NCBI GenBank assembly: GCA_028286685.1
Contig: JAQBRA010000004.1
Span: 120,300 to 184,299 of the forward strand
Source of the DNA: Candidatus Adlerbacteria bacterium
GTDB taxonomy: Bacteria > Patescibacteriota > Minisyncoccia > Phycocordibacterales > SBAW01
Reading direction: 5' to 3'
DNA: 64,000 bases
The notes beneath the pieces are model-generated. The model did no database searches. It was not told where the DNA came from and was given only the letters and a program-made list of their open reading frames with translations. Every line of letters starts with the position of its first letter. The first letter of the stretch is position 1. A program made the position numbers and the translations under genes. This document shows, piece after piece, positions 7,573-54,919 of this stretch.

Positions 7573-8175
7573 TCAAAGATTGCCGCAATGGTTCCTTAAT
7601 TCTTGTTGAAATTTATTATAGTCTTCAGATCTTCCCTTTAAAGAGCCAATATTGAACCCTTCGACTAACGAAGAATATATTTCCTCGTCCAAGACAGTGA
7701 AATCTATTTCTCCTAAATCTCTCTTTCCTGCAATTATCTTAAGTATCCTATCTTTTGGCTGCAAATTAGAATGAGGAAGTTCTTCATGCCCTGCCAGATT
7801 AAAATAATTAACAACGGAATCTTTTTCCTTTATAAAAAGGTCCTCAAAATGAGGCTCGACTACAAGTGTGGCCACAGGAATTCCTGGTATCAAACTTTCA
7901 TTAGAGCGAATCCAGGAACTTATCTCAGTTTTTCTTTCAGGATATGTATCGACATCAGAATGTACGATCAAAATATCTGGACGATCTCCTTGCATAAGGG
8001 TACTAACAGCAGCTGCAAGTTTTGGATATACAGACCCTTTCGTTTCATAAGGTTTCTTAAAATCAACACTAAAACTCAGAGGAAACTGAATCTCGAAGGA
8101 GGAAATCGTGCGTTCAACGAGTATCTCGAGAGGCCTCGAGTCCAACCTGCCTTCGCAAATAATGCCGATCAGCAT
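7573..8175 (-). CDS. TOPRIM-like nuclease-domain protein (DUF4276-like), partner of the upstream AAA_21 ATPase
   Basis: N-terminal IGIICEGRLD (conserved Glu) and HSDVDTY (DxD) resemble the TOPRIM catalytic motifs. Its start overlaps the stop of the ATPase gene (8175/8179), so the two are translationally coupled. Confidence 0.55.
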   Translation of the reverse strand: MLIGIICEGRLDSRPLEILVERTISSFEIQFPLSFSVDFKKPYETKGSVYPKLAAAVSTLMQGDRPDILIVHSDVDTYPERKTEISSWIRSNESLIPGIPVATLVVEPHFEDLFIKEKDSVVNYFNLAGHEELPHSNLQPKDRILKIIAGKRDLGEIDFTVLDEEIYSSLVEGFNIGSLKGRSEDYNKFQQELRNHCGNL

Positions 8176-8178
8176 AAA

Positions 8179-9297
8179 CTATTTTGAATACCGAGCTTGT
8201 AAGTACTCACTTAAGTCTCCGCCTTCTGCAAGTACTTTCGTGACTTGTGATATTTGCTCGGAATCTTTTAGACCAGTGAATCGACTACCTTTTATTGGAT
8301 CTTTTCCCACATAAATAACATCCTGCGGCCTAACTTTATTAATTATGGCGGTACTGTGAGTCGAGAAAACAAATTGTTTATTTGTTGTTCGAGAAATATT
8401 ATCAACAAAATTAATAATTTTTAGAATTCGTTCAGGATGTATGCCATTTTCTATTTCATCAAAGACAAAAGTGGAATAGTCATCACTAATAACCCCGGCG
8501 GCTAAATAGTAGAGTGTTCTTAAGTCTCCATGAGAAATAGCCTTAAACGACAATCTCCCTCGCATATTTTTTTCCGTAAATAATACAACATACTCATCAA
8601 TGCCTGCTAACTGAGTCGTGTTTGCGGGTGCAACAATATGCTCGAAAGAGTTCAAAGAAGGCAAGAGTTTTTTGGTCATTACCATAAACTTCTCATATTT
8701 CTCAGGAACCTTTGTTATCCTGTAAATTAAATCTTCAACCTTTTCAACCAGTACAGAAAGATCAATTACTGGTACATAAGTCTTACCTAATATCGATCGA
8801 ACTTTTTGAGCATCAGGATTTTTATACTGAGAAATTGCCGTTTGGTAATCACTAATAAGGAGAGGGATTGCTTTACTTTCAGAATTTAATAATTCACTAT
8901 TATTCCTAATAAAAACCTCCCGTGATTCTCCCGTAGGATCACTTGCAGTTAATTTCTCGTAAACAACTACCAGCTCTAGATTGTTGTCAGCTTTTTTTTG
9001 TGCAGAAACTCGAAACTCGTACACATATTCATTTTCATCACCATTAACAAGAGTGATTTTTATATCAAAAGTATCAGAGCTTGAGTTTCTGTAAAAAGCT
9101 TCTCCAGGTGTTTTAGTAAATTTTTTTACAGCATCATTAACATTGAGACTTGCAACTAGATCCTTTGTAAGCGAAATGGCCGTTATAAGATTGCTTTTCC
9201 CAACGCCATTATTGCCTACAATTATGGAAAATCGGTCAAGGTCAACTGACTCGTTTTCTATACTTTTGAAGTTCTTAATGTGGATGTTTTTTATCAT
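8179..9297 (-). CDS. AAA_21/ABC-type ATPase (OLD/PARIS AriA-like family)
   Basis: Walker A VGNNGVGKSNL, ABC-signature-like SHGDLRTL, Walker B FVFDEIENGIHP and H-loop FSTHS. Confidence 0.75.
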   Translation of the reverse strand: MIKNIHIKNFKSIENESVDLDRFSIIVGNNGVGKSNLITAISLTKDLVASLNVNDAVKKFTKTPGEAFYRNSSSDTFDIKITLVNGDENEYVYEFRVSAQKKADNNLELVVVYEKLTASDPTGESREVFIRNNSELLNSESKAIPLLISDYQTAISQYKNPDAQKVRSILGKTYVPVIDLSVLVEKVEDLIYRITKVPEKYEKFMVMTKKLLPSLNSFEHIVAPANTTQLAGIDEYVVLFTEKNMRGRLSFKAISHGDLRTLYYLAAGVISDDYSTFVFDEIENGIHPERILKIINFVDNISRTTNKQFVFSTHSTAIINKVRPQDVIYVGKDPIKGSRFTGLKDSEQISQVTKVLAEGGDLSEYLQARYSK

Positions 9298-9516: not shown

Positions 9517-9592
9517 TGGTGGACCCTACCGGGATCGAACCGGTCACCTCCTCATTGCAAATGAGGCGCTCTACCAGATGAGCTAAGGGCCC
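9517..9592 (-). tRNA. tRNA-Ala (anticodon TGC) with encoded CCA
   Basis: Minus-sense GGGCCCTTAGCTCATCTGGTAGAGCGCCTCATTTGCAATGAGGAGGTGACCGGTTCGATCCCGGTAGGGTCCACCA. Has the G3:U70 identity pair, anticodon loop TT-TGC-AA and T-loop GGTTCGATCC. Confidence 0.9.
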
Positions 9593-46141: not shown

Positions 46142-46441
46142 CTAGTTTCCGGAAAATCCGGGGATATTGAAGATGCCGACAGCAAGGTCTGCCCAGATGA
46201 TAAGAAGTGCTGCCAGGAATACTCCGCCCAAGATCAGCCGGTTCCTGGCGCTTCCAACCTTCCTGGCAGCAAACTCATAGGCAAGGCCGGTCCCGAGCAG
46301 GAGGATGCCGATCGTTATGAAATCGGTTAGATCCCAATCCACTTCATGGGTAAACTGCATCGCTATCAAAGGTACTGCCAAGATGGCCGCGGTCCCGAGT
46401 ACGATGCCCATAATTCTTTTATTTTCCATAGATAGTCTCAT
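46142..46441 (-). CDS. Hypothetical membrane protein (99 aa)
   Basis: Three TM helices. Confidence 0.5.
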   Translation of the reverse strand: MRLSMENKRIMGIVLGTAAILAVPLIAMQFTHEVDWDLTDFITIGILLLGTGLAYEFAARKVGSARNRLILGGVFLAALLIIWADLAVGIFNIPGFSGN

Positions 46442-46538
46442 GTGTTTCTATAATCCCCTCCTTCGGGTGCGCTTATATAACCGCCGGCCCTGGAGGAAAG
46501 TTACCTGATTGAAAAAAGCAGCGCGTACGAACTGATGC

Positions 46539-47084
46539 CTACTTGCTTAGCAGTTCCAGCAATTTAGTCGTGGTATTCCAGTTGCGGATAGTCATAGACT
46601 TGTAGGGCAGCGTCCCGACGATTTTACTAAGCCGGCTTTTGGTCCGCAGGGAGCTAAGCCGCTGCGAATAAATCACGCCAGTGCCCGGCCACACCGAATC
46701 CACCCCTTCCTTGGGGCTGAATACGGCCATGGCCGGGGTAACAGCAATGTCCATGAGAAAGATCGCGTCGCTGTGGTATTTCTTGGGCTGCTCGCCGAAG
46801 CCTTTGGGCTTTTTGTCGACCATGGCCTTAAGCTGGCGGCGGCTCAGTACCAGGACCTTAATAAGCGCGCTGTCGAGCTTAAAGGCCTTGGGCAGGACTT
46901 TCTCTATCTTATCTTTTATAAAATCGGGCTTTTTGTCGGACTTCAATAGTACGTTGCCGCTGGCGATATAGGTCGAGACATCAGAAAAGCCCATTTCTTC
47001 CAGGCACTTCCTCAATGCCGCCATTGATACCTTATTTTTCCCGCCGACATTGATGCCGCGCAGAAGCACTGCGTACGTATTCAT
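46539..47084 (-). CDS. DUF1697 domain protein
   Basis: MNTYAVLLRGINVGGKNKVSMAALRKCLEEMGF is characteristic of DUF1697. Confidence 0.75.
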   Translation of the reverse strand: MNTYAVLLRGINVGGKNKVSMAALRKCLEEMGFSDVSTYIASGNVLLKSDKKPDFIKDKIEKVLPKAFKLDSALIKVLVLSRRQLKAMVDKKPKGFGEQPKKYHSDAIFLMDIAVTPAMAVFSPKEGVDSVWPGTGVIYSQRLSSLRTKSRLSKIVGTLPYKSMTIRNWNTTTKLLELLSK

Positions 47085-47390
47085 TTATTTTGATTTTTTA
47101 GAACGCCTGTCGAGCACCGCCCGAATCGAGGGGCTTACCGGCTTATCCGCCCGGTGGATGCAGCCTATCCAGCAGCACGGCCGGCGCATGCCGGAGCCAA
47201 GCTTCGAGGTCGCCTTCCTTATCCTAATATCTCTGGTTTCCGCCTTTTTGCCGGATATAACCCAACATATCCACTCTTGGCGCGCCAAGGGCGTAATGCT
47301 TTCCCACACGGCATGCGCCGCCTTGTTTGAGGCAACGGCCTGGCGCAGATCTGCGGGCATGGCGTGCATGCCTCTAGTGTACCAAAGCAA
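47085..47390 (-). CDS. YdeI/OmpD-associated family protein
   Basis: QEWICWVISGKKAETRDIRIRKA motif. Confidence 0.65.
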   Translation of the reverse strand: MLWYTRGMHAMPADLRQAVASNKAAHAVWESITPLARQEWICWVISGKKAETRDIRIRKATSKLGSGMRRPCCWIGCIHRADKPVSPSIRAVLDRRSKKSK

Positions 47391-47430
47391 TGCCCAGCCT
47401 TCAGCAATTCCAGCAGCCTTGTTGCCGGCC

Positions 47431-47790
47431 TTATTGCTTCCGCAAAATCTTCTCCATTGCCCTTCCCTTTGCCAACTCGTCGATCAGCTTGTCCAAGTAG
47501 CGAATTCCCTGCATGGTCGGCTCCTTGATGTCTTCCACTCGGACGCCACACACCACGCCGCTGATCAGAGTCCGCGACGGATTGAGCTTGGGAGCTTCCG
47601 CAAGAAAGGTTTCGAAGTCCGTCTGTTTTTTCAGGTGCGCTTTTAACCCTTCCTGGCTGTATCCTGTCAGCCAGCGGATGACTTCATCGACTTCTTTTTT
47701 CGTGCGTCCTTTTTTCTCTGCCTTGGCCACATACAGCGGATAGACGCTTGCGAAGCTCATTCTATAGATCCGATGGCTTGTAGTATTCAT
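47431..47790 (-). CDS. DUF2200 family protein; the left-most gene carrying the array repeat (degenerate copy 0) upstream
   Basis: [44 protein letters not shown]. Confidence 0.65.
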
Positions 47791-47798
47791 GGTAAGTA

Positions 47799-47825
47799 GC
47801 GGGTATCCGGGACAATGCTAGAACC
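47799..47825. repeat. Array repeat copy 0 (degenerate, about 21 of 28 matches): GCGGGTATCCGGGACAATGCTAGAACC
   Basis: Aligns to the consensus GCTGGGTGTATGGGACGATGTTGGAACC; lies 9 nt upstream of the DUF2200 ATG. Confidence 0.6.
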
Positions 47826-47829
47826 TTAC

Positions 47830-48300
47830 TTAGATGCTATCGGATTTTATATCCACGGCTTTTTGCAAAATCCGTTCAAGCACTGACGCCGCAGCGGCGG
47901 TTATGGCAGAGGCGATAATTATAAGAAGGCTTATGGCAACGCCGCCCGCGATATCGTCGCCAGGCCGAACTACAAGCAGGTAGGCCAGTGGCGCCGCGAC
48001 GAAACCGATAAGGGCTAGCGCACAGTATTTCATAGTCCGCAGGGCTTTCAGCGACGATTGCGAGAATACCTCATTCCGCCCCGCGAGCCCCAAGAGCTTG
48101 AATGCTTGGTAGAGCGCGATGAAAAAAGCGATAGACGCCGTATATGCATACGCCAAGAACAGATCGTTGAAGTAGATCTCAAAGAGCGTGGCATGCGCAT
48201 TCCTGCCCTCAAGGTGGGGTTCCCAAAGCATAAAGGCAAGAACGCCGATGCCGATGAGCATAACGACCACTTGAAGAAATAGTGATGGGATCCTTTTCAT
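47830..48300 (-). CDS. Cassette gene: hypothetical 4-TM membrane protein (possibly DUF2975-like)
   Basis: Flanked by repeat copies 0 and 1. Confidence 0.5.
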   Translation of the reverse strand: MKRIPSLFLQVVVMLIGIGVLAFMLWEPHLEGRNAHATLFEIYFNDLFLAYAYTASIAFFIALYQAFKLLGLAGRNEVFSQSSLKALRTMKYCALALIGFVAAPLAYLLVVRPGDDIAGGVAISLLIIIASAITAAAASVLERILQKAVDIKSDSI

Positions 48301-48368
48301 GGCCGGTTCTTATAAATTTTCATCCAAAGCATTCCTACTTAGAACTTTCCTTGCTCTTAAGAAGTAAC

Positions 48369-48398
48369 CCGCTGGGTGTATGGAACGATGTTGGAACC
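48369..48398. repeat. Array repeat copy 1: CGCTGGGTGTATGGAACGATGTTGGAACC
   Basis: One mismatch to the consensus. Confidence 0.9.
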
Positions 48399-48408
48399 TC
48401 CTTAAGTT

Positions 48409-48837
48409 CTATTTATTTGCATTGAACTCCACAATCCACTCAATACCGTATTTATCTCTAAACATACCGGCATATGTTCCCCAAGGACTTTCCCCGATTG
48501 CCCCTTCTACTTGTCCTCCAATAGAAAGACCATTAAATATTTTTTCCGCTTCTTCTTTGTTGTCTGCATTTAGATGGATTTTACTCCTATTTTCATTTTC
48601 ACTTACTTTTCCCATAACTTCAGGAACATCGTTTCCTATTAGCATATTTCCGCCGCCAATAGGCAAAGTAATCAGCATGATTTTGTTCTCCTCTATATCT
48701 CTAACCGGGAATTCAGGACTCGCAAGATCTTTGAAACGAATCACCTTTGTAAAATCTCCGCCAAAAACAGATTTATAAAAAGTAAACGCTTCTTCGGCAT
48801 TACCATTAAAATTAATCCAAGGGTTTATTGCTGTCAT
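48409..48837 (-). CDS. Cassette gene: VOC/PhnB-like glyoxalase-superfamily protein (paralogue class of 42599..43111)
   Basis: MTAINPWINFNGNAEEAFTFYKSVFGG. The -10 box TATAAT (48844-48849) lies 6 nt upstream of the ATG, suggesting a leaderless transcript. Confidence 0.7.
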   Translation of the reverse strand: MTAINPWINFNGNAEEAFTFYKSVFGGDFTKVIRFKDLASPEFPVRDIEENKIMLITLPIGGGNMLIGNDVPEVMGKVSENENRSKIHLNADNKEEAEKIFNGLSIGGQVEGAIGESPWGTYAGMFRDKYGIEWIVEFNANK

Positions 48838-48880
48838 AGTGAAATTATATACTTGAGACCTTGGTCACACAACATACTCT

Positions 48881-48970
48881 GAATTTGCTGGGTGCACGGG
48901 CGACCTGATTTTTAACGAACAGAGCGAGTATAAAAATGGAAGTACTCTTGTGGTAACGATGTTGGAACCA
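48881..48970. repeat. Array repeat copy 2, split at its centre: left half GAATTTGCTGGGTGCACGGG, then a 54-nt unrelated insert, then right half ACGATGTTGGAACC
   Basis: The two halves map exactly to positions 1-14 and 15-28 of the consensus. Confidence 0.8.
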
Positions 48971-49037
48971 TTGTAGCAAAAGAAGAAGCGGCTACCCCAT
49001 AGGATAGCCGCCTGCTGAAATGACCGGGGTCAGAGCC

Positions 49038-49619
49038 TTAGCCAGTAATAACCCGACAAATGCGGCCGACAAATCCGAGCTTCTTGCCTCGTCTTTGAAA
49101 CTGGAGGAGATCAGTGCGTGGAATGTCGTAAGCATATCTTGCCCGAGCCATGGCAATTTCCTGGTCTGGATAGAGGCTAACCCAGGTGCGACGCTGAATT
49201 TTCTCGGTTTCTTCGAATACGGCCTTGCCGTCTTGGACTACCCCAACAGGAAGAAAGTCCGTCTCGAACAAGGTGATCTCACGGCGAGTAGTCTCGGAAC
49301 CGATATCTTCGTCGAAGTAGAGCTTGCCGAATCTCATCGACGTATCCCACTCGTGGAATCGGTCGACACATGTCGCCTCTAGACCCGGAAGCAGGCTGTC
49401 CATGAATGCCTGCAACTCAGGACCGGTATAAATACCCTGATTGGGCGCGACAATGAAGTCGACGGTGTGAGTCCAAAAGCCATCGCGGTGTGGAAAATGA
49501 TTCAGCTCGTTGACCGCGACGATCTGGATATTCGTGTTGCCTTGGAGAGCAGCACGGACGGAAGCAAGCTTAGACATGCAAGAAGCGTCCTTTGGCGCTG
49601 GTTGAACAACTATACGCAA
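49038..49619 (-). CDS. Cassette gene: hypothetical protein (193 aa; TTG start at 49619 or ATG MSKLASV at 49580)
   Basis: Flanked by repeat copies 2 and 3, with a terminator-like hairpin GCGGCTACCCCATAGGATAGCCGC downstream. Confidence 0.55.
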   Translation of the reverse strand: MRIVVQPAPKDASCMSKLASVRAALQGNTNIQIVAVNELNHFPHRDGFWTHTVDFIVAPNQGIYTGPELQAFMDSLLPGLEATCVDRFHEWDTSMRFGKLYFDEDIGSETTRREITLFETDFLPVGVVQDGKAVFEETEKIQRRTWVSLYPDQEIAMARARYAYDIPRTDLLQFQRRGKKLGFVGRICRVITG

Positions 49620-49646
49620 ATTACAACAAATTATCTAAAAAGTCGA

Positions 49647-49673
49647 GCTGGGTGTTTGGGACGATGTTGGAAT
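49647..49673. repeat. Array repeat copy 3: GCTGGGTGTTTGGGACGATGTTGGAATC
   Basis: Two mismatches to the consensus. Confidence 0.9.
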
Positions 49674-49675
49674 CT

Positions 49676-50074
49676 TTATTGAGTAGGAATGCCCCTTTTA
49701 GCCAAGTCCTCTATGGACTCAAATTCCAGATAATTCTGGGTCAATTCCTCTCCTGCTTGTATATCCCGAGCCGCTACCAAGTAAGCATCTGCGTGAGCCG
49801 AATCCTGCGTAACCGTTGCCTCGTAGGAGTGATTGATGAAATGCGATACATCAAAGTCGACATGCCACTTTTGGCTAGGCTCATCAAAGAATCCCCACCA
49901 CTGAACTTCATGCTTCTCTTTCTCATCCAAAGAGTCGAACTGCTCTTGAGTAAGGTTCACGTCGAGCAAGGGACTCGCGGTATAAATGAGCGTGCCTTTA
50001 GAAATATTTTGGTTGGCAAAAAGTCCGACACCATGATGCTCTGATTTATCGAGATTGTACTTGATATGAATCAT
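49676..50074 (-). CDS. Cassette gene: small SET-domain protein (132 aa)
   Basis: GVGLFANQNISKGTLIY, NHSYEAT (NHSCxPN-like) and GEELTQNY (post-SET-like) motifs. Confidence 0.65.
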   Translation of the reverse strand: MIHIKYNLDKSEHHGVGLFANQNISKGTLIYTASPLLDVNLTQEQFDSLDEKEKHEVQWWGFFDEPSQKWHVDFDVSHFINHSYEATVTQDSAHADAYLVAARDIQAGEELTQNYLEFESIEDLAKRGIPTQ

Positions 50075-50100
50075 GCCGATACAGTATCACAAAAAGACTG

Positions 50101-50128
50101 GCTGGGTGTATGGGACGATGTTGGAACC
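50101..50128. repeat. Array repeat copy 4 (perfect consensus) with an 80-nt conserved extension carrying terminator hairpin GCCGCCC...GGGCGGC
   Basis: The extension is homologous to the one after copy 9 at 53646-53710. Confidence 0.9.
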
Positions 50129-50209
50129 ATTCTGACACATGAATATGGAAAAGAAAATGCCGCCCAAGTATAGCCGGGGCGGCTCGGTATCGTATAATTT
50201 TTAGGTCGA

Positions 50210-50617
50210 TCAGTTCACTCTACGACTTGTCTGGTGCAAGTCATAGAATCGATAAAGAGCCGGACATGGAAACGGCGCGGACGAAGTACCCCAGACCTGC
50301 TCCCCTTTTTCCTCCATCTCGCGCAGGACTTCCGCCCCGCGATCGAGATCGTTGGTGTTTAAGAGAAAATTGATATGGTATTCCCCCGCTTCGCTCCCAA
50401 TTTGGGTTCGAAACAGCACCCCCGAGCGTGCGCCGACCATATGGGTATCCCATGCCGTCTCAATAATTCCGTCGCAGACATCACTGACAATATGCATACG
50501 TTCCCATTTCTTTAGGTAGAGATCACATGCAGCCATCTTAAGCGCCGCTCGCACTTGGTCGGTAATCATACCTGGACCCTTTTCGACCATGAGGCAAGTC
50601 CAAGAGTCGTTGGACAT
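50210..50617 (-). CDS. Cassette gene: hypothetical protein, possibly SRPBCC/Bet v1-like (135 aa)
   Basis: ATG MSNDSWTCLMVEKGP at 50617; fold call is weak. Confidence 0.5.
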   Translation of the reverse strand: MSNDSWTCLMVEKGPGMITDQVRAALKMAACDLYLKKWERMHIVSDVCDGIIETAWDTHMVGARSGVLFRTQIGSEAGEYHINFLLNTNDLDRGAEVLREMEEKGEQVWGTSSAPFPCPALYRFYDLHQTSRRVN

Positions 50618-50685
50618 CGTCAGTCTCCCGATTTGTTCCTGATGCAGCTGAAAAGATAATACAACAAAGTATATCAAAAGCAATA

Positions 50686-50713
50686 GCTGGGTGTATGGGA
50701 CGATGTTGGAACC
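50686..50713. repeat. Array repeat copy 5 (perfect consensus)
   Basis: GCTGGGTGTATGGGACGATGTTGGAACC. Confidence 0.9.
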
Positions 50714-50760
50714 TTATTAACAGAAATCGCCTAACAAAGTCAGGCGACTCTGCTAGGCGG

Positions 50761-51039
50761 TTAAATGATTGGGACTTGGCCCTCGTCAGGACATTCCGGG
50801 ACGAGCTTTTCGTCCAAGAGATAAAGTTTACCGCTAAGCCAGTCGCCGCTGGCATAGCTTTCATACATCCGGTCGTATTCGGACCGAACAGTAACATCGC
50901 CTGCGATTTTCCAGACCCCGTTTTCTGGAATCACAACGAGCCGCTTTCCGGCAGGCGTATATGGTGGAGTTTCGCTCAGATGACCCTGAACAAGAACCCC
51001 TTTTGCCTCGACGGCTTTCACTCCGTAATAAGTGCCCAC
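50761..51039 (-). CDS. Cassette gene: hypothetical protein (92 aa, GTG start with SD GGAGA)
   Basis: SD CAGGAGAAAGAA immediately precedes GTG 51039. Confidence 0.5.
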   Translation of the reverse strand: MGTYYGVKAVEAKGVLVQGHLSETPPYTPAGKRLVVIPENGVWKIAGDVTVRSEYDRMYESYASGDWLSGKLYLLDEKLVPECPDEGQVPII

Positions 51040-51108
51040 TTCTTTCTCCTGATGTTCTAGTGCGATTAACTTTTATAAAAATACATGAATTACAGAACAT
51101 GTCAATAG

Positions 51109-51135
51109 TTTGGTGTGTGGGACGATGTTGGAACC
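51109..51135. repeat. Array repeat copy 6: TTTGGTGTGTGGGACGATGTTGGAACC
   Basis: Left arm diverged; the shared tail CTATTTTGA overlaps the stop of the next gene. Confidence 0.85.
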
Positions 51136-51401
51136 TATTTTGATTTTAAAACAACAATGTAAGTCCCTATCCATGAACCCAAGGCCAAAGGAAGAATGTA
51201 CAAGTAATTTTGCACATAACTTAGAACTCCAACCGCAATAAGAAAGTGCATTAGTGCGCCTACCGTAGCAGACTTAAAAGGTTGCTTCTCAGCTATTGCG
51301 AGTGTGTAATAAGCATACATACCATCTACCAAAATGTAGGCGAAGAAAACAACGAGAGCGGAAAGCGGATTAAAGGTCTGCCAAAGATCAAAAAAGTTCA
51401 T
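51135..51401 (-). CDS. Cassette gene: small 3-TM membrane protein (88 aa)
   Basis: Repeat copy 7 ends 6 nt upstream of its ATG; probably co-transcribed with 51435..51845. Confidence 0.55.
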   Translation of the reverse strand: MNFFDLWQTFNPLSALVVFFAYILVDGMYAYYTLAIAEKQPFKSATVGALMHFLIAVGVLSYVQNYLYILPLALGSWIGTYIVVLKSK

Positions 51402-51407
51402 AAATTT

Positions 51408-51435
51408 GCTGGGTGTATGGGACGATGTTGGAACC
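51408..51435. repeat. Array repeat copy 7 (perfect consensus)
   Basis: The TAG stop of the upstream cassette overlaps the repeat end (GGAACCTATTTTGA). Confidence 0.9.
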
Positions 51436-51845
51436 TATTTTGAGGCTAGATAGGCCTCTATCTTGGCCACGTCTATCAAATCCTTCTCTCTAGCATAAAC
51501 CTCCTTAACCAGTTTTACATCTCGCAAGCCTGCAAACGGCACTCCGTCAATTAGTTCGGAATTCTTTTTCAGCCGCTCAAAAGTCATTTCTGCAATGCCA
51601 CCAACATTTGGATACAGCTCAATAGTCCCCTCGTCATTGGCTACACCCGCCTCCTCTGTCGGGATAATTCTCGGATGATGGTGCCAACCCTCTTTGTTGC
51701 GATACTCATCTAGAAGTTTGGGAGAAACAACAATATCGATATCATTTGTTTCTTTTAACCCGCGCGCTGCTAACGCCGCACCTCCAATTACTACGTACTC
51801 GTCAACTGGAAAGTTATGCTTTTTTATTTCTGAAAAGATATCCAT
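51435..51845 (-). CDS. Cassette gene: minimal nucleotidyltransferase (pol-beta superfamily) fold protein
   Basis: VVIGGAALAARGLKETNDIDIVV matches the G[SG]-x9-13-[DE]h[DE]h MNT signature. Confidence 0.6.
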   Translation of the reverse strand: MDIFSEIKKHNFPVDEYVVIGGAALAARGLKETNDIDIVVSPKLLDEYRNKEGWHHHPRIIPTEEAGVANDEGTIELYPNVGGIAEMTFERLKKNSELIDGVPFAGLRDVKLVKEVYAREKDLIDVAKIEAYLASK

Positions 51846-51864
51846 AATTTACTTAACTTAATTA

Positions 51865-51892
51865 GCTGGGTGTATGGGACGATGTTGGAACC
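51865..51892. repeat. Array repeat copy 8 (perfect consensus)
   Basis: GCTGGGTGTATGGGACGATGTTGGAACC. Confidence 0.9.
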
Positions 51893-51949
51893 TTTTTAGT
51901 TAATGGCACCTGACGCTAAAATCCTTTTCAGTACAGCCAATAATAAAAG

Positions 51950-53542
51950 CTATTTTATTGAAGCAATGAATGCCTTTGTTTTTGGTCCGAAGTATCCCAA
52001 AGAAGGAGTGATTCCATTTGTTTTTTGAAACTTAGCAAGTGCTGCTCGAGTAAGCGCGCCAAAGAAATCCGTTTCATTTCCTGCAGACCCAATTCCTGAA
52101 AGTGCCACGGGAGATTCGTGTCCGTTCAAAAACTCTTGGAGCGCTTTCACGTCGTCTCCCGAGAAGCCTGTTTTAAGATCACGCGTAAAAGAAACGGGCT
52201 GCACATCTCCAGATTGAAATACTTGCGGAAAGTTTTTCATCAAGTCTTCTGCTTTTTGAGTTTCACTCATTGCAATAAGATTTTTTACTCGACTCTGAAC
52301 TGAACTTCCATGGCTCGATCGGTGGTGTGGTTCAGGAGTTGGGGTTGCCGTAGGAGTGACCGTAAGAGTTGTCGGTGGAGGAAGAGGCTGATCCGATGTT
52401 AAGGAAAAGAGTACACCATTATTGTTGACTCCACCAAACTCAGTAACGCCATAAATCACATCGCTACTACTTCTGAATAATGTAGCATCAGCATTTTTAC
52501 CATCGGTACCATCAAAGTTATGCAGTACGGTATAGGTGCCAGAGTCAGCTGGATCAAAGGAGAAGACGACACCTTTGCTATTAGTGCCTCCCGAAAATGT
52601 GATTCCATAAAATACACCACCAATCTCAAGAAGAGAACCTTGTGAACTGTATCCCTCAGCAGTATCAAAGTTATAAAGCACGGTATACGTGCCCGAGCCA
52701 GCAGGATCATAGGAGAAGATGACGCCTTTGTTATTGGTCCCTCCTGCGCCTGTCATTCCATAAAATTTTCCACCGTATGCAACAAGAGAATTACCTCCCA
52801 CGCCATTCCCTTCAGTACCGTTAAAATTATGCAGCACGGTATACGTGCCGGAACCTGCAGGATCGTAAGAAAAGATAGTGCCTTGGTTAGATAATCCCCC
52901 AGTGCCTTCCCCATAAAAAACGCCATCCGACAGAATCATCGAACCATAATAAGGTCCCCCTCCTTCAGTACCATTAAAATTATGTAGCACAGTAAAGGTA
53001 CCCGAGCCAGCGGGATTGTAGGAATAGATGACACCGCGGCTATCAGGTCCTCCACTTAGAGTAGTTCCATACAGAACTCCATCCTTCTCTAGAAGAGCGC
53101 CTTGGGGAATTGCGCCATGGGTATCATCAAAGCTATGCAGCACCGTGAAAGTGCTTGAATCTGCAGGATCAATAGAATAGAGAACGCCTTTATTGTTTGT
53201 TCCTCCACCGTCCGTTACACCATAAAAAATACCATTGTATTCGAACAATGTTCCAGAAGGATTCCCTCCCTCAGTACCATTAAAATTATAAAGCACGGTG
53301 TAGGTGCCAGAGCCTGCGGGGTCATAGGAGTAGATGACGCCTTTGCTATTTGCTCCCCCCGCATATCCTACTCCATAAATAATTCCATCTTTTTCAATTA
53401 AAAAATCATACGGGTCTGTACCGGTTAGGGAACTAAAATCATACAGTTTTAAATAGGCAAAGGCAGCGAAGGCGGTATGCGCAGATACTAAAAAGGTGCT
53501 TACGAAGATGAAAAACGAGACTATATAAAAAGATAACTTCAT
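51950..53542 (-). CDS. Cassette gene: secreted protein with Gloeo_Verruco-type beta-propeller repeats and a C-terminal peptidoglycan-binding domain
   Basis: Signal peptide; at least 9 repeats of G..YTVLHNFNGTEGG.P.G.L....G.FYG.T..GG..N.GVIFSYDPA; C-terminal PG_binding_1-like (LQEFLNGH...GYFGPKTKAFI). Confidence 0.75.
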   Translation of the reverse strand: MKLSFYIVSFFIFVSTFLVSAHTAFAAFAYLKLYDFSSLTGTDPYDFLIEKDGIIYGVGYAGGANSKGVIYSYDPAGSGTYTVLYNFNGTEGGNPSGTLFEYNGIFYGVTDGGGTNNKGVLYSIDPADSSTFTVLHSFDDTHGAIPQGALLEKDGVLYGTTLSGGPDSRGVIYSYNPAGSGTFTVLHNFNGTEGGGPYYGSMILSDGVFYGEGTGGLSNQGTIFSYDPAGSGTYTVLHNFNGTEGNGVGGNSLVAYGGKFYGMTGAGGTNNKGVIFSYDPAGSGTYTVLYNFDTAEGYSSQGSLLEIGGVFYGITFSGGTNSKGVVFSFDPADSGTYTVLHNFDGTDGKNADATLFRSSSDVIYGVTEFGGVNNNGVLFSLTSDQPLPPPTTLTVTPTATPTPEPHHRSSHGSSVQSRVKNLIAMSETQKAEDLMKNFPQVFQSGDVQPVSFTRDLKTGFSGDDVKALQEFLNGHESPVALSGIGSAGNETDFFGALTRAALAKFQKTNGITPSLGYFGPKTKAFIASIK

Positions 53543-53617
53543 ACCAAAATTGAATCAACCTAAATCCTTCAGATGAAGTATATATCACTTTTCGAAGCGA
53601 TTTTACGCTTAAAATTT

Positions 53618-53645
53618 GCTGGGTGTATGGGACGATGTTGGAACC
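53618..53645. repeat. Array repeat copy 9 (perfect consensus) with a conserved 65-nt extension
   Basis: The extension ATTTTGACACACCAATTTAGAAAAGAAAATGCCGCCC... parallels the one after copy 4. Confidence 0.9.
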
Positions 53646-53716
53646 ATTTTGACACACCAATTTAGAAAAGAAAATGCCGCCCTATAGTCCGGAGCGACTT
53701 GCCGCTAGTTTAAAAA

Positions 53717-54040
53717 TTAAATGTGGAAAGAAAGGGCAAGAATAGCAGATTCGCCATTTTCTGTTCGCCGCCAATTCACAAAGGCAGTACTCTCAACTAC
53801 TTTTGAATAAAGTTCTGGGTATTTCTCTTTTAAATCTTTAGCGTTATCTAATTGTAACGTTACGATTTCTCCTCCTTTTACTTGTACCTTGTTCATCTCA
53901 GTATCTAGGCTAGACATGCAGTCAATCCAAGCATTCATATTTCTTCCGTAGTAGTCAGGGAAGCCAAAAACTTCGTAAAACGTATCGTGCAAAGTCTCTT
54001 CGCTGACAATTTTGCCGGCATCAATTATTACTGTTTTCAT
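53717..54040 (-). CDS. Cassette gene: barstar-like (barnase-inhibitor family) immunity protein
   Basis: MKTVIIDAGKI...LHDTFYEVFGFPDYYGRNMNAWIDCM. A perfect TATAAT (54048-54053) lies 1 nt before an upstream in-frame ATG, so the mRNA probably starts at MKTV (leaderless). The longer ORF N-terminus is just the repeat read in frame. Confidence 0.65.
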   Translation of the reverse strand: MKTVIIDAGKIVSEETLHDTFYEVFGFPDYYGRNMNAWIDCMSSLDTEMNKVQVKGGEIVTLQLDNAKDLKEKYPELYSKVVESTAFVNWRRTENGESAILALSFHI

Positions 54041-54089
54041 GTCCATGATTATACTACGTGTCTCGGTCGCGATAATCTCGAGTGAATTT

Positions 54090-54117
54090 GCTGGGTGTAT
54101 GGGACGATGTTGGAACC
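54090..54117. repeat. Array repeat copy 10 (perfect consensus) with extension carrying hairpin GCGGCTCC-TAATTTG-GGGAGCCGC
   Basis: The extension is homologous to the one after copy 2 (48971-49015). In minus sense the hairpin plus TTCTTCTTTT forms a terminator. Confidence 0.9.
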
Positions 54118-54184
54118 ATTGTAGCAAAAGAAGAAGCGGCTCCTAATTTGGGGAGCCGCTGTATATAAGTCGGAAAATATTTGT

Positions 54185-54559
54185 TCAACCAGGAGTAGAA
54201 GTCCGGACTTCTTCCATAATTACGGAAACCTGTGCGGCAAATTCCGTAGGAAATACTTCCGCAACAAGACTAGGAATATCTCTGCGGATGAATATTTCAA
54301 CTGTCGGAACACGGTCGACTGCATGGTGCTTGATCATCTGACCGTCGCGGTCTTTGCCACACTTTAGATTACTGAAAGCAAGTTCGATTTCCATCAAGAA
54401 TTGAGACGGACAAATCGTATCGCCGCGCAGTTGCGTAGAAAGAAAGTCTGCGAATTCATGTGAGTAGTTACCCACAACACTTTTTGGCCAAAATGCGGAG
54501 AGTTTTTCTTTGATCGGTTCGAGGGGAAGATCAATTTCGTCTTTGGGATCAAGTATCAT
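54185..54559 (-). CDS. Cassette gene (tRNA-proximal): hypothetical protein (124 aa)
   Basis: ATG MILDPKD at 54559 preceded by SD AGAGGAG; the track start at 54586 is a TTG. Confidence 0.5.
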   Translation of the reverse strand: MILDPKDEIDLPLEPIKEKLSAFWPKSVVGNYSHEFADFLSTQLRGDTICPSQFLMEIELAFSNLKCGKDRDGQMIKHHAVDRVPTVEIFIRRDIPSLVAEVFPTEFAAQVSVIMEEVRTSTPG

Positions 54560-54783
54560 TACATGCTCCTCTTTGTTGAAGTCCAAAAATCACATTACAA
54601 CAAAGTATTTGAAAAGTCACTAGCGGGGAAACATGGTTCGGTCAGGCGTTCAAAAGTTGTCGTCACAACTTTTGCCGCACGACCCTGCCTCGCTCCCGCC
54701 TGTGCTCGCGCGGGTCCCGCACTACTTCGAGTACTTCCATTTTCTAAAGCGGAGTACCCCTAAGAAAATTAGGTCGCTCCGGC

Positions 54784-54830
54784 TTTCGAATCCATGCCGC
54801 GAAGCATCCCATGCTTCGCTTCTCCCAGCT
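54784..54830 (+). other. Inverted partial copy of the tRNA-Gln 3' half (TTCGAATCCATG / TCTCCCAGCT) interrupted by a 24-nt perfect palindrome
   Basis: 12 plus 10 nt are identical to the tRNA-Gln T-arm and acceptor 3' strand. The copy is in opposite orientation and sits 18 nt from the tRNA 3' end. Confidence 0.7.
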
Positions 54831-54848
54831 TCATTACTACGTATTTAG

Positions 54849-54919
54849 CTGGGAGACATGGATTCGAACCATGATTCACGGCTTCAAAGGCCGCTGTCCT
54901 ACCATTAGACGATCTCCCA
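54849..54919 (-). tRNA. tRNA-Gln (anticodon TTG), no encoded CCA
   Basis: Minus-sense TGGGAGATCGTCTAATGGTAGGACAGCGGCCTTTGAAGCCGTGAATCATGGTTCGAATCCATGTCTCCCAG. Has a 7-bp acceptor stem, anticodon loop CT-TTG-AA and T-loop GGTTCGAATCC. Confidence 0.85.

Follow-up and report, generated by a model that had tools for sequence, protein, structure and literature searches.

The window analysed here, a stretch of 64 kb, contains an array of ten 28-bp repeats in the same orientation with single ORFs between them, located directly downstream of a tRNA-Gln(UUG) gene (Table 1). The G+C content of the array is 0.445, versus 0.57-0.585 in the flanks. Further copies of the repeat are found in split form at 48890-48972 and in degenerate form at 47800-47826. 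The spacing between a repeat and the following gene may be very short, and the next ORF can begin 6 nt after the repeat.

One of the cassettes, with a G+C content of 0.40 versus 0.57 in the flanks, carries the gene with which this work is mainly concerned, an ORF on the minus strand that contains the motif FYEVFGFPDYYGRNMNAWIDCM and encodes a barstar-family protein. The ORF ends with the stop codon TAA (53717-53719) and has two potential in-frame starts, at 54046 (MDMKTV...) and 54040 (MKTV...). A longer ORF (53717..54127) reads through the preceding repeat, and its N-terminal extension MLQWFQHRPIHPA is the 28-mer read in frame. The sequence-only reading, which was made before the present analysis, had explained the extension LQWFQHRPIHPA of the ORF track in the same way, as repeat and not as protein, and correctly so. 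The stretch between the stop codon and the closing repeat has only a weak predicted fold (z = -0.44). When the flanks of the repeats at 50101 and 53618 are aligned, this stretch is seen to share sequence with the terminator module that precedes the former.

Table 1. Features of the barstar cassette and of the array to which it belongs.
Feature	Position	Strand	Evidence or remark
Barstar-family ORF, 107 aa from the second ATG (MKTV...), stop included	53717..54040	minus	Pfam, PDB alignment, homologue starts, AlphaFold, Foldseek
In-frame upstream ATG-GAC ('MD' of the 109-aa GenBank call), probably untranslated	54041..54046	minus	1 nt after the -10 box
Perfect -10 hexamer TATAAT, predicted leaderless promoter	54048..54053	minus	7 nt before ATG 54040
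Cassette leader between repeat and -10 box, AAATTCACTCGAGATTATCGCGACCGAGACACGTAG, 36 nt	54054..54089	minus	degenerate copy of the hairpin motif
28-mer (coding strand GGTTCCAACATCGTCCCATACACCCAGC), left boundary of the barstar cassette	54090..54117	minus	cassette junction directly after CCCAGC
28-mer closing the 3' end of the barstar cassette	53618..53645	minus	sequence
3' untranslated stretch of the barstar cassette, ~70 nt	53646..53716	minus	decayed copy of the terminator module
TATAAT of the VOC/glyoxalase cassette (48409-48837)	48844..48849	minus	6 nt before ATG 48837
Cassette array, ten 28-mers in the same orientation, single ORFs between	48371..54119	minus	sequence; low G+C
tRNA-Gln(UUG), anchor of the array	54848..54919	minus	ARAGORN and Rfam

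The other cargo of the array is varied. Pfam identifies a SET-domain protein of 132 aa (E = 9e-14) and a VOC protein of 142 aa (matches to Glyoxalase and 3-dmu-9_3-mt), and a protein of 530 aa combines PG_binding_1 (Pfam) with seven Gloeo_Verruco repeats (NCBIfam TIGR03803, E = 2.8e-76). The SET and PG-binding beta-propeller proteins had been named in the sequence-only reading and are upheld. For its putative nucleotidyltransferase the only match is a sub-threshold one to DUF6036 (E = 0.003, 17.9 bits versus a cut-off of 23.6). The barstar is the only immunity-like ORF among the ten cassettes of the window, and no recombinase domain was found by Pfam among about 50 window ORFs.

The barstar-family protein and its subfamily

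The protein matches the Pfam family Barstar (PF01337) with E = 5.3e-15 and 55.6 bits, versus a cut-off of 23.4. In a phmmer search of PDB sequences barstar was the only match, with residues 3-45 of the query aligned to residues 1-43 of barstar. An AlphaFold model, calculated with an alignment of 69 sequences, has a pLDDT of 92.2 and a pTM of 0.83, and when this model was compared with the PDB by Foldseek, a check that the sequence-only reading had proposed, the best 23 matches were all barstar chains (probability 1.0, target-normalised TM 0.58-0.76). The gene encodes a barstar-family protein, as had been read from the sequence, and the fold predicted for it is the alpha/beta fold of barstar. 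NCBIfam and PADLOC scans gave no match to it. An identical protein of 109 aa is already present in GenBank as 'barnase inhibitor [Candidatus Adlerbacteria bacterium]', on a contig of 192 kb, which assigns the window to Patescibacteria/CPR.

In the 69 homologues, the invariant or nearly invariant columns of the helix-2 region are H, G, F, P, Y, G, N, M, A, W, I, D, C, and M. The most conserved stretch, FGFPx(Y/F)YGRNMNAWIDCM(S), overlies the barnase-binding loop and helix 2 of barstar. The equivalent of Asp39 of barstar is D42 (in the numbering of the 109-aa ORF) and is invariant in the subfamily alignment, while the equivalent of Asp35 is an Asn (N38) in this protein and in at least 90% of the subfamily. 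The signature of the Imm-Barstar family is a DxxxD motif on helix 2, formed by Asp35 and Asp39 of barstar (PMC3482391). Because the Asp35 equivalent is Asn across the subfamily, this signature is only half kept. The ORF in the window is intact and retains all the invariant residues of the subfamily.

The absence of a barnase or other RNase toxin gene from the window, which had also been noted from the sequence, was confirmed by two approaches. Pfam scans of about 50 window ORFs found no ribonuclease or toxin domain, the 1576-aa surface protein having no RNase domain either; and when seed sequences of barnase, binase, RNase Sa, and RNase T1 were run against the six reading frames by tblastn and HMM, only noise resulted (best E 0.13). 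The adjacent ORF of 124 aa (54185-54559) was considered as a toxin partner and rejected: it is an acidic ORFan whose sole database match is itself, and it has no match in Pfam, NCBIfam, or PADLOC.

The stand-alone state of the gene is shared by its relatives. The subfamily of about 110 aa comprises 746 cluster representatives at E ≤ 1e-3 and 232 at E ≤ 1e-10, most of the representatives among the matches listed being single-domain proteins of about 100-120 aa, and its members are 45-55% identical across phyla. About ten neighbourhoods of homologues were inspected, in Patescibacteria, Shewanella, Planctomycetia, and other metagenomic contigs, and none has a recognised RNase family beside the barstar gene. 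The homologous genes follow or overlap DUF2283, 23S_rRNA_IVP, or Peptidase_M20 genes, or stand alone; for example, in two loci (L020 and L021) the gene lies in a DUF2283 operon without repeats. Ten longer fusion proteins were scanned, and these carry DUF7638/7639, Glyoxalase, Cys_rich_CPCC, or HEAT domains and in no case a nuclease domain. The 'orphan' state is a habit of the subfamily, and is no mark of a lost toxin or of an immunity reservoir.

Because no RNase partner was identified, the inhibitor function is assigned by homology alone. Fast-evolving immunity proteins are usually far less conserved than this subfamily, and this conservation, combined with the diversity of its operon partners, would also be compatible with another binding partner.

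Promoter and translation start

The sequence-only reading had placed a perfect TATAAT 1 nt before the first ATG and 7 nt before MKTV. These spacings are exact: the hexamer, read on the minus strand from 54053 to 54048, is separated from the first ATG by a single C. The TATAAT that it had reported 6 nt before the start of the VOC cassette is likewise present. Residue 1 of PDB barstar aligns to residue 3 of the ORF, which is the second Met, and the three closest homologues (67-74% identity) begin at this Met without the 'MD' residues. Because both barstar and the closest homologues begin there, the true start of the gene is most likely the second ATG at 54040, and it is most likely this ATG, and not the first, that the TATAAT promoter would serve.

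Leaderless 'group C' bacteria are recognised in the literature by a Pribnow box that lies 6-8 nt ahead of the start codon (PMC6028130). The sequence upstream of the barstar start, cgagacacgtagTATAATcatggac, contains no GGAG, GAGG, or AGGA, i.e. no Shine-Dalgarno (SD) sequence. In the window as a whole, hexamers resembling a -10 box (at least 5/6 matches, with A2 and T6) were counted before 65 non-overlapping ORFs of at least 100 aa. Such a hexamer lies 6 nt before the ATG in 10 of these genes, 7 nt before it in 5, 8 nt in 2, and 9 nt in 2, against a background of about 0.4 genes per position; 15-19 of the 65 genes are thus spaced like the barstar gene. The genes with a -10 box at the leaderless spacing include dnaX, a UvrC-like gene, FKBP, and an AI-2E transporter. 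The perfect TATAAT occurs 12 times on the minus strand of the window, and in five of these cases the ATG of a long ORF follows after 6-7 nt. The -10 hexamers are not accompanied by a -35 consensus; the sequence immediately before them merely tends to G.

The same pattern is seen in 23 other Patescibacteria loci with 192 genes, in which the -10 hexamers peak at a gap of 6 nt (25 genes), with 7 genes at a gap of 7 nt, versus about one per position. In the barstar homologues of L023, L057, and L058 the TATAAT lies 6, 6, and 8 nt before the ATG. Leaderless expression of the barstar gene is therefore a well-supported prediction from spacing and sequence context. The leaderless mRNA of the sequence-only reading is retained in so far as the spacing fits; its attachment to the first ATG and to the cassettes is not. 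The predicted leaderless arrangement is the norm for the first genes of this genome and for Patescibacteria loci generally, and is nothing specific to the cassette. Within the same array, an SD-like purine run precedes the start codon in the cassettes of 124, 92, 135, and 179 aa, two or more of which also show a promoter-like pair further upstream. Because the pattern is genome-wide and other cassettes of the array are SD-like, the predicted leaderless expression is no property of the array.

The predicted leaderless architecture of Patescibacteria loci bears on the calling of gene starts and on the design of expression constructs in a group that became genetically tractable only recently.

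The 28-bp repeat and the exchange of cassettes

The repeat was compared in 104 distinct copies from 43 Patescibacteria loci, in which positions 2-18, 20-21, and 24-28 are almost invariant. Its alignment with the 3' end of tRNA-Gln (GGTTCGAATCCATGTCTCCCAGC) is better than those of all 5000 shuffles. In about half of 40 cassettes, the repeat begins between -2 and +4 nt from the stop codon. In nine folds of single-strand DNA, the 28-mer is either unpaired or paired marginally and inconsistently, with no recurring hairpin.

Several known kinds of element were considered for the repeat and rejected. An attC-type hairpin is not seen in the nine folds, a separate terminator hairpin being present in some cassettes only. 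Rfam, both at the gathering score and at E ≤ 1, matched the tRNA alone, so that no known RNA family was recognised in the repeat. A dif/Xer-like or other dyad-symmetric core was dismissed by eye, as the 28-mer has no inverted arms. In a CRISPR array the spacers would correspond here to whole genes of 0.3-1.7 kb, and there are no cas genes. As for a phage attP, the single match in viral_contigs is taken as due to chance, because it lies within a coding region and lacks the flanking GG and CAGC.

In a scan of one genome per species, the core of the repeat was found in 19 loci, all of which belong to CPR/Patescibacteria or to unclassified MAGs except for one (L016), binned as Gammaproteobacteria, whose sequence is identical to part of a tRNA-Gln locus (L042). 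A tRNA-Gln gene lies upstream on the same strand in 10 of the 19 loci, and is also found in further metagenome loci. Three of the loci (L001, L005, and L013) share the order dus-like gene, dnaX, tRNA-Gln, and array. Another 23 loci came from a scan of metagenomes, and in these as many as 11 copies of the repeat occur within 6 kb. Among 30 cassette ORFs of other arrays are HAD (3), NUDIX (2), cytidine deaminase, serine hydrolase, APH, SET, PNPOx, HTH, receiver, and PEP-utiliser domains. Barstar is absent from the 42 other array loci of the two scans.

Comparisons between genomes indicate where cassettes begin and end. Two of the syntenic loci, L001 and L005, align at 77% identity as far as the tRNA 3' end, past which they are unrelated. 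One cassette follows the tRNA (...TCTCCCAGC) in L005 and a 28-mer (...CACCCAGC) in L048, and the identity of the two copies begins at the first base past CCCAGC. L035 and L044 have one cassette in common from repeat to repeat, and in the pairs L006/L008 and L017/L044 the flanks are in common while the number of cassettes differs. The cassette junction is shown by these between-genome comparisons; the mechanism of insertion we infer.

Judged by sequence, barstar cassettes do recur in 28-mer arrays. In L057, a barstar 71% identical to that of the window follows a 28-mer with 3 mismatches, a leader hairpin ACTCGTGCTGGGTTATCGCGCACGAGAC, and a TATAAT 6 nt before the ATG; this copy has an in-frame stop at a conserved Pro codon. 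In L058, a tRNA-Gln(CUG) gene and two 28-mers precede a barstar of 72% identity. The 28-mer is absent from the homologue loci L020-L026, although in L023 the barstar gene is flanked by degenerate, tRNA-like copies. A hairpin motif, ACTCGTGnnnGGTTATCGCGCACGAGAC, directly follows ...CCAGCCA in L002, L019, L023, and L057, and the leader of the window cassette (54089-54054) is a degenerate copy of it.

In one locus (L049), tRNA-Gln and the first cassette are separated by an element of 12 kb with genes for a large serine recombinase (Resolvase and Recombinase domains) and a Prim-Pol primase. This element ends in a tRNA-3'-like sequence, GACCGAACCCTATCCCCCAGC. A homologous recombinase is encoded in L002 (E = 1e-47). 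The serine recombinase of these elements, which occupy the same tRNA-Gln site, is a candidate for the recombinase of the arrays, as a lead and not a demonstration.

In the window, the stretch from 54590 to 54847 is an odd, G+C-rich, non-coding sequence in which the tRNA 3' end recurs in inverted form, interrupted by a hairpin. Its last part is GACCGAACCATGTTTCCCCGC, which resembles the end of the L049 element.

A literature search found no report of leaderless genes in Patescibacteria, no paper with the sequence of the repeat, and nothing linking Patescibacteria with cassette arrays, tRNA-Gln, or serine recombinases; such absence is no proof of novelty.

Role of the gene and comparison with known systems

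The region 53618-54089 on the minus strand is probably a self-contained, horizontally acquired cassette whose single gene is a leaderless, stand-alone barstar, likely guarding against an RNase that is not co-encoded. The gene would have entered the array that follows tRNA-Gln as a mobile unit, with the 28-bp repeat, similar to the tRNA-Gln 3' end, as its boundary. From a -10-only promoter (TATAAT, 54053-54048), the predicted first base of the transcript is the A of ATG 54040 or a base next to it, and because of this predicted start the mRNA would have neither a 5' leader nor a Shine-Dalgarno sequence. The protein may bind and plug the active site of an RNase of the barnase/N1-T1 type or of a related BECR fold, which would come from neighbouring or host cells or be encoded elsewhere in the genome. 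Neither the gene nor its relatives lie beside a recognised RNase, and therefore protection from a non-co-encoded RNase is its most likely role.

Three other explanations bear on this reading. The protein might serve self-immunity in trans, protecting its producer from a secreted barnase-like or BECR RNase encoded outside the window, e.g. as the C-terminal domain of a large surface protein. Barnase-barstar pairs are canonical, Imm-Barstar is specifically tied to barnase-like toxins (PMC3482391), and the 64 kb of the window are only part of a contig that is at least 192 kb long. This explanation is nevertheless unlikely, considering that no RNase domain was found in the window, the large surface protein included, that no recognised toxin accompanies the homologues in the neighbourhoods examined, and that a mobile cassette of low G+C is an improbable guardian against a resident toxin. 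It is also conceivable, if doubtful, that this NxxxD subfamily of the barstar fold (about 110 aa) binds a partner that is no toxin, such as a housekeeping nuclease or another enzyme, and is no immunity protein at all. The unusually high conservation across phyla (232 representatives at E ≤ 1e-10, with invariant columns), the loss of the first Asp of DxxxD, the overlap with upstream Peptidase_M20, DUF2283, or 23S_rRNA_IVP genes, and the fusions to Glyoxalase, HEAT, CPCC, and DUF7638/7639 but never to nucleases count in its favour. Against it, the most conserved stretch coincides with the barnase-binding helix and keeps the key contact Asp39, and the fold match is specific to barstar.

That the cassette is a silent passenger, an unexpressed or decaying hitch-hiker whose TATAAT is a chance hexamer in A+T-rich DNA, appears highly improbable. 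Although the homologous cassette of L057 has an in-frame stop, and the perfect TATAAT is found 12 times on the minus strand of the window, the ORF of the window is intact with all its invariant residues, five of those 12 hexamers sit 6-7 nt before a long-ORF ATG, and the same spacing is conserved in three homologous cassettes.

Beyond the favoured reading of a cassette-borne, leaderless barstar, there is an about even chance that the gene is the cargo of an undescribed, integron-like gene-capture system of Patescibacteria, in which it would act as a mobile, self-expressed defence unit. In such a system, single-gene cassettes, several of them apparently with their own promoter signals, would be inserted serially directly 3' of tRNA-Gln. 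Each would end in a 28-bp site, GGTTCCAACATCGTCCCAnACACCCAGC, mimicking the 3' end of tRNA-Gln, with the crossover at or next to the common CCCAGC. The recombinase would be encoded elsewhere, the candidate being the large serine recombinase of the L049/L002 elements, and the barstar cassette would circulate among these episymbiotic bacteria.

The barstar gene itself adds little, being another stand-alone homologue that is apparently expressed like most first genes here. The unusual results are the cassette system anchored at tRNA-Gln and the predicted leaderless architecture across the lineage. If the array is a site-specific gene-capture platform, it would be an analogue of the integron in a quarter of bacterial diversity, and would provide a concrete route of gene flow in the reduced genomes of Patescibacteria.

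In its sequence family, predicted fold, N-terminus, and helix-2 segment with the Asp39 equivalent, the protein is like the barstar of Bacillus amyloliquefaciens and Imm-Barstar. It differs from the Bacillus barstar in having no adjacent barnase, in the Asn at the Asp35 position, in its greater length (by about 17 residues, the part after helix 2 being extended), and in belonging to a tightly conserved stand-alone subfamily. The first genes of the 'group C' bacteria (Actinobacteria, Deinococcus) likewise have a Pribnow box 6-8 nt before their starts and no SD sequence; the lineage here is Patescibacteria, and the starts are predicted from sequence alone.

In its cargo the array is like an integron. 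As with integron cassettes, each unit holds a single ORF, all units point the same way, and each is closed by a conserved site that starts at the stop codon or just behind it; the array cassettes are exchanged between genomes at a conserved site and carry small accessory enzymes. In contrast to integrons, the site is an unpaired 28-bp sequence without an attC hairpin (R''-L''/L'-R') or an Rfam match, there is no IntI in the window, the 3' end of tRNA-Gln takes the place of attI/Pc as the platform, and several cassettes appear to carry promoter signals of their own.

The orphan immunity genes and acquired interbacterial defence (AID) clusters of Bacteroidales likewise offer a toxin-less gene of the immunity type on a mobile, repeat-bounded gene array. 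AID clusters consist mostly of immunity genes and have a tyrosine recombinase. Here, however, only one of the ten window cassettes is immunity-like, other arrays carry small enzymes, and no recombinase was found in the window. The suggestion of the sequence-only reading that the array is a reservoir of immunity modules, as in polymorphic-toxin immunity islands, is not supported by this composition or by the stand-alone habit of the subfamily. The cargo of the array is integron-like, and the array is no polymorphic-toxin immunity island.

With tRNA-linked genomic islands that grow by tandem accretion, the array has in common its position immediately 3' of a tRNA gene, direct repeats that resemble the tRNA 3' end, and the presence of a serine-recombinase element at the same tRNA in L049 and L002. 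In contrast to such islands, its units are single genes of 0.3-1.7 kb without an integrase of their own, and its repeat is not a copy of the tRNA end but a distinct 28-mer conserved across Patescibacteria classes.

Boundary repeats of the cassette array

The 28-mer GGTTCCAACATCGTCCCAnACACCCAGC is the terminal sequence of every cassette in the tRNA-Gln-anchored array of single-gene cassettes, and 104 distinct copies of it are found in 43 Patescibacteria loci. One cassette exhibits two attachments: in one genome it adjoins the tRNA 3' end, in another a 28-mer, with the joint directly after CCCAGC. No published account of a tRNA-Gln-anchored 28-mer cassette array was found in a literature search. 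The positions of the array and of the other features are listed in the table.

Features of the window and of loci from other genomes or metagenomes (L-numbers)
Feature	Location	Remark
Array of single-gene cassettes	window 47800-54919; loci L001-L019, L028-L050, L057, L058	anchored at tRNA-Gln
First cassette past the tRNA	window 54185-54559	acidic 124-aa protein
Non-coding stretch	window 54590-54847	between tRNA-Gln and first cassette
Shared module	window 49620-49645, 50655-50685, 54590-54615	
Split 28-mer	window 48890-48972	just upstream of VOC cassette
Degenerate 28-mer	window 47800-47826	in region 46142-48300
Second low-G+C islet (~0.40)	window 7573-9297	adjoins tRNA-Ala 9517-9592
12-kb element	L049 217-12232	inserted between tRNA-Gln and first 28-mer
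Recombinase homologue	L002 7150-8000	
Barstar cassette	L057 2104-2525	within another array

The acidic protein of the first cassette has itself as its sole match among 5.8 billion sequences, and family searches for it gave no match. About 20 nt past each of the 28-mers at 49647 and 50686, and likewise past the tRNA-like end at about 54620, comes a shared module that reads (A/C)TTTGTTGTAAT or TTTGTTGTATTAT. The cassettes that follow it show an SD-like run ahead of their starts, and the module looks like a conserved promoter piece travelling with the boundary site.

The window also has a split and a degenerate copy of the repeat. About 57 nt lie between the two halves of the split 28-mer, GGTTCCAACATCGT on the left and CACCCAGC on the right, and the structure could be either an insertion into the repeat or a recombination scar. 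Small accessory genes with a higher G+C content (DUF2975, DUF2200, OmdA/YdeI, and DUF1697) lie beyond the degenerate copy and may be old cassettes with decayed repeats. An OmdA gene is also carried by the L057 array.

Elements beside tRNA genes

The G+C-rich non-coding stretch contains a hairpin-split inverted copy of the tRNA 3' end, AGCTGGGAGA[AGCGAAGCATGGGATGCTTCGCGG]CATGGATTCGAA, and terminates in the tRNA-3'-like GACCGAACCATGTTTCCCCGC. Pieces resembling this stretch are present in L002 and where the L049 element ends, and it is possibly the relic of an integrative element. Besides ThiF/JAB-like genes, the L049 element encodes a Prim-Pol primase and a large serine recombinase, and a homologous recombinase is encoded in L002. 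In L049, moreover, a second tRNA-Gln-like sequence, riddled with insertions, adjoins the true tRNA.

The islet by tRNA-Ala contains a gene for an AbiLi/AAA_21-type ATPase (PADLOC AbiLi, E = 8e-33) and one for a 200-aa partner without known family, and together they resemble a defence module of two genes beside a tRNA.

Start signals and barstar relatives

About one quarter of the genes in the window, including dnaX, a uvrC-like gene, and FKBP, have a -10-like hexamer 6-7 nt ahead of the first ATG, and a peak of such hexamers at the same distance is also seen in 23 other Patescibacteria loci (L001-L023). This pattern points to leaderless transcription as a lineage-wide trait of Patescibacteria, of which a literature search found no report.

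The barstar cassette of L057 is a homologue of that in the window. It is a pseudogene, because its FGFP motif has an in-frame TAA in place of the conserved Pro codon. Members of this stand-alone barstar subfamily are also found fused to Glyoxalase/VOC, Cys_rich_CPCC, DUF7638/DUF7639, and HEAT domains (fusion proteins P0125, P0113, P0174, P0140, and P0132), and these domains may hint at the real partners of the subfamily.
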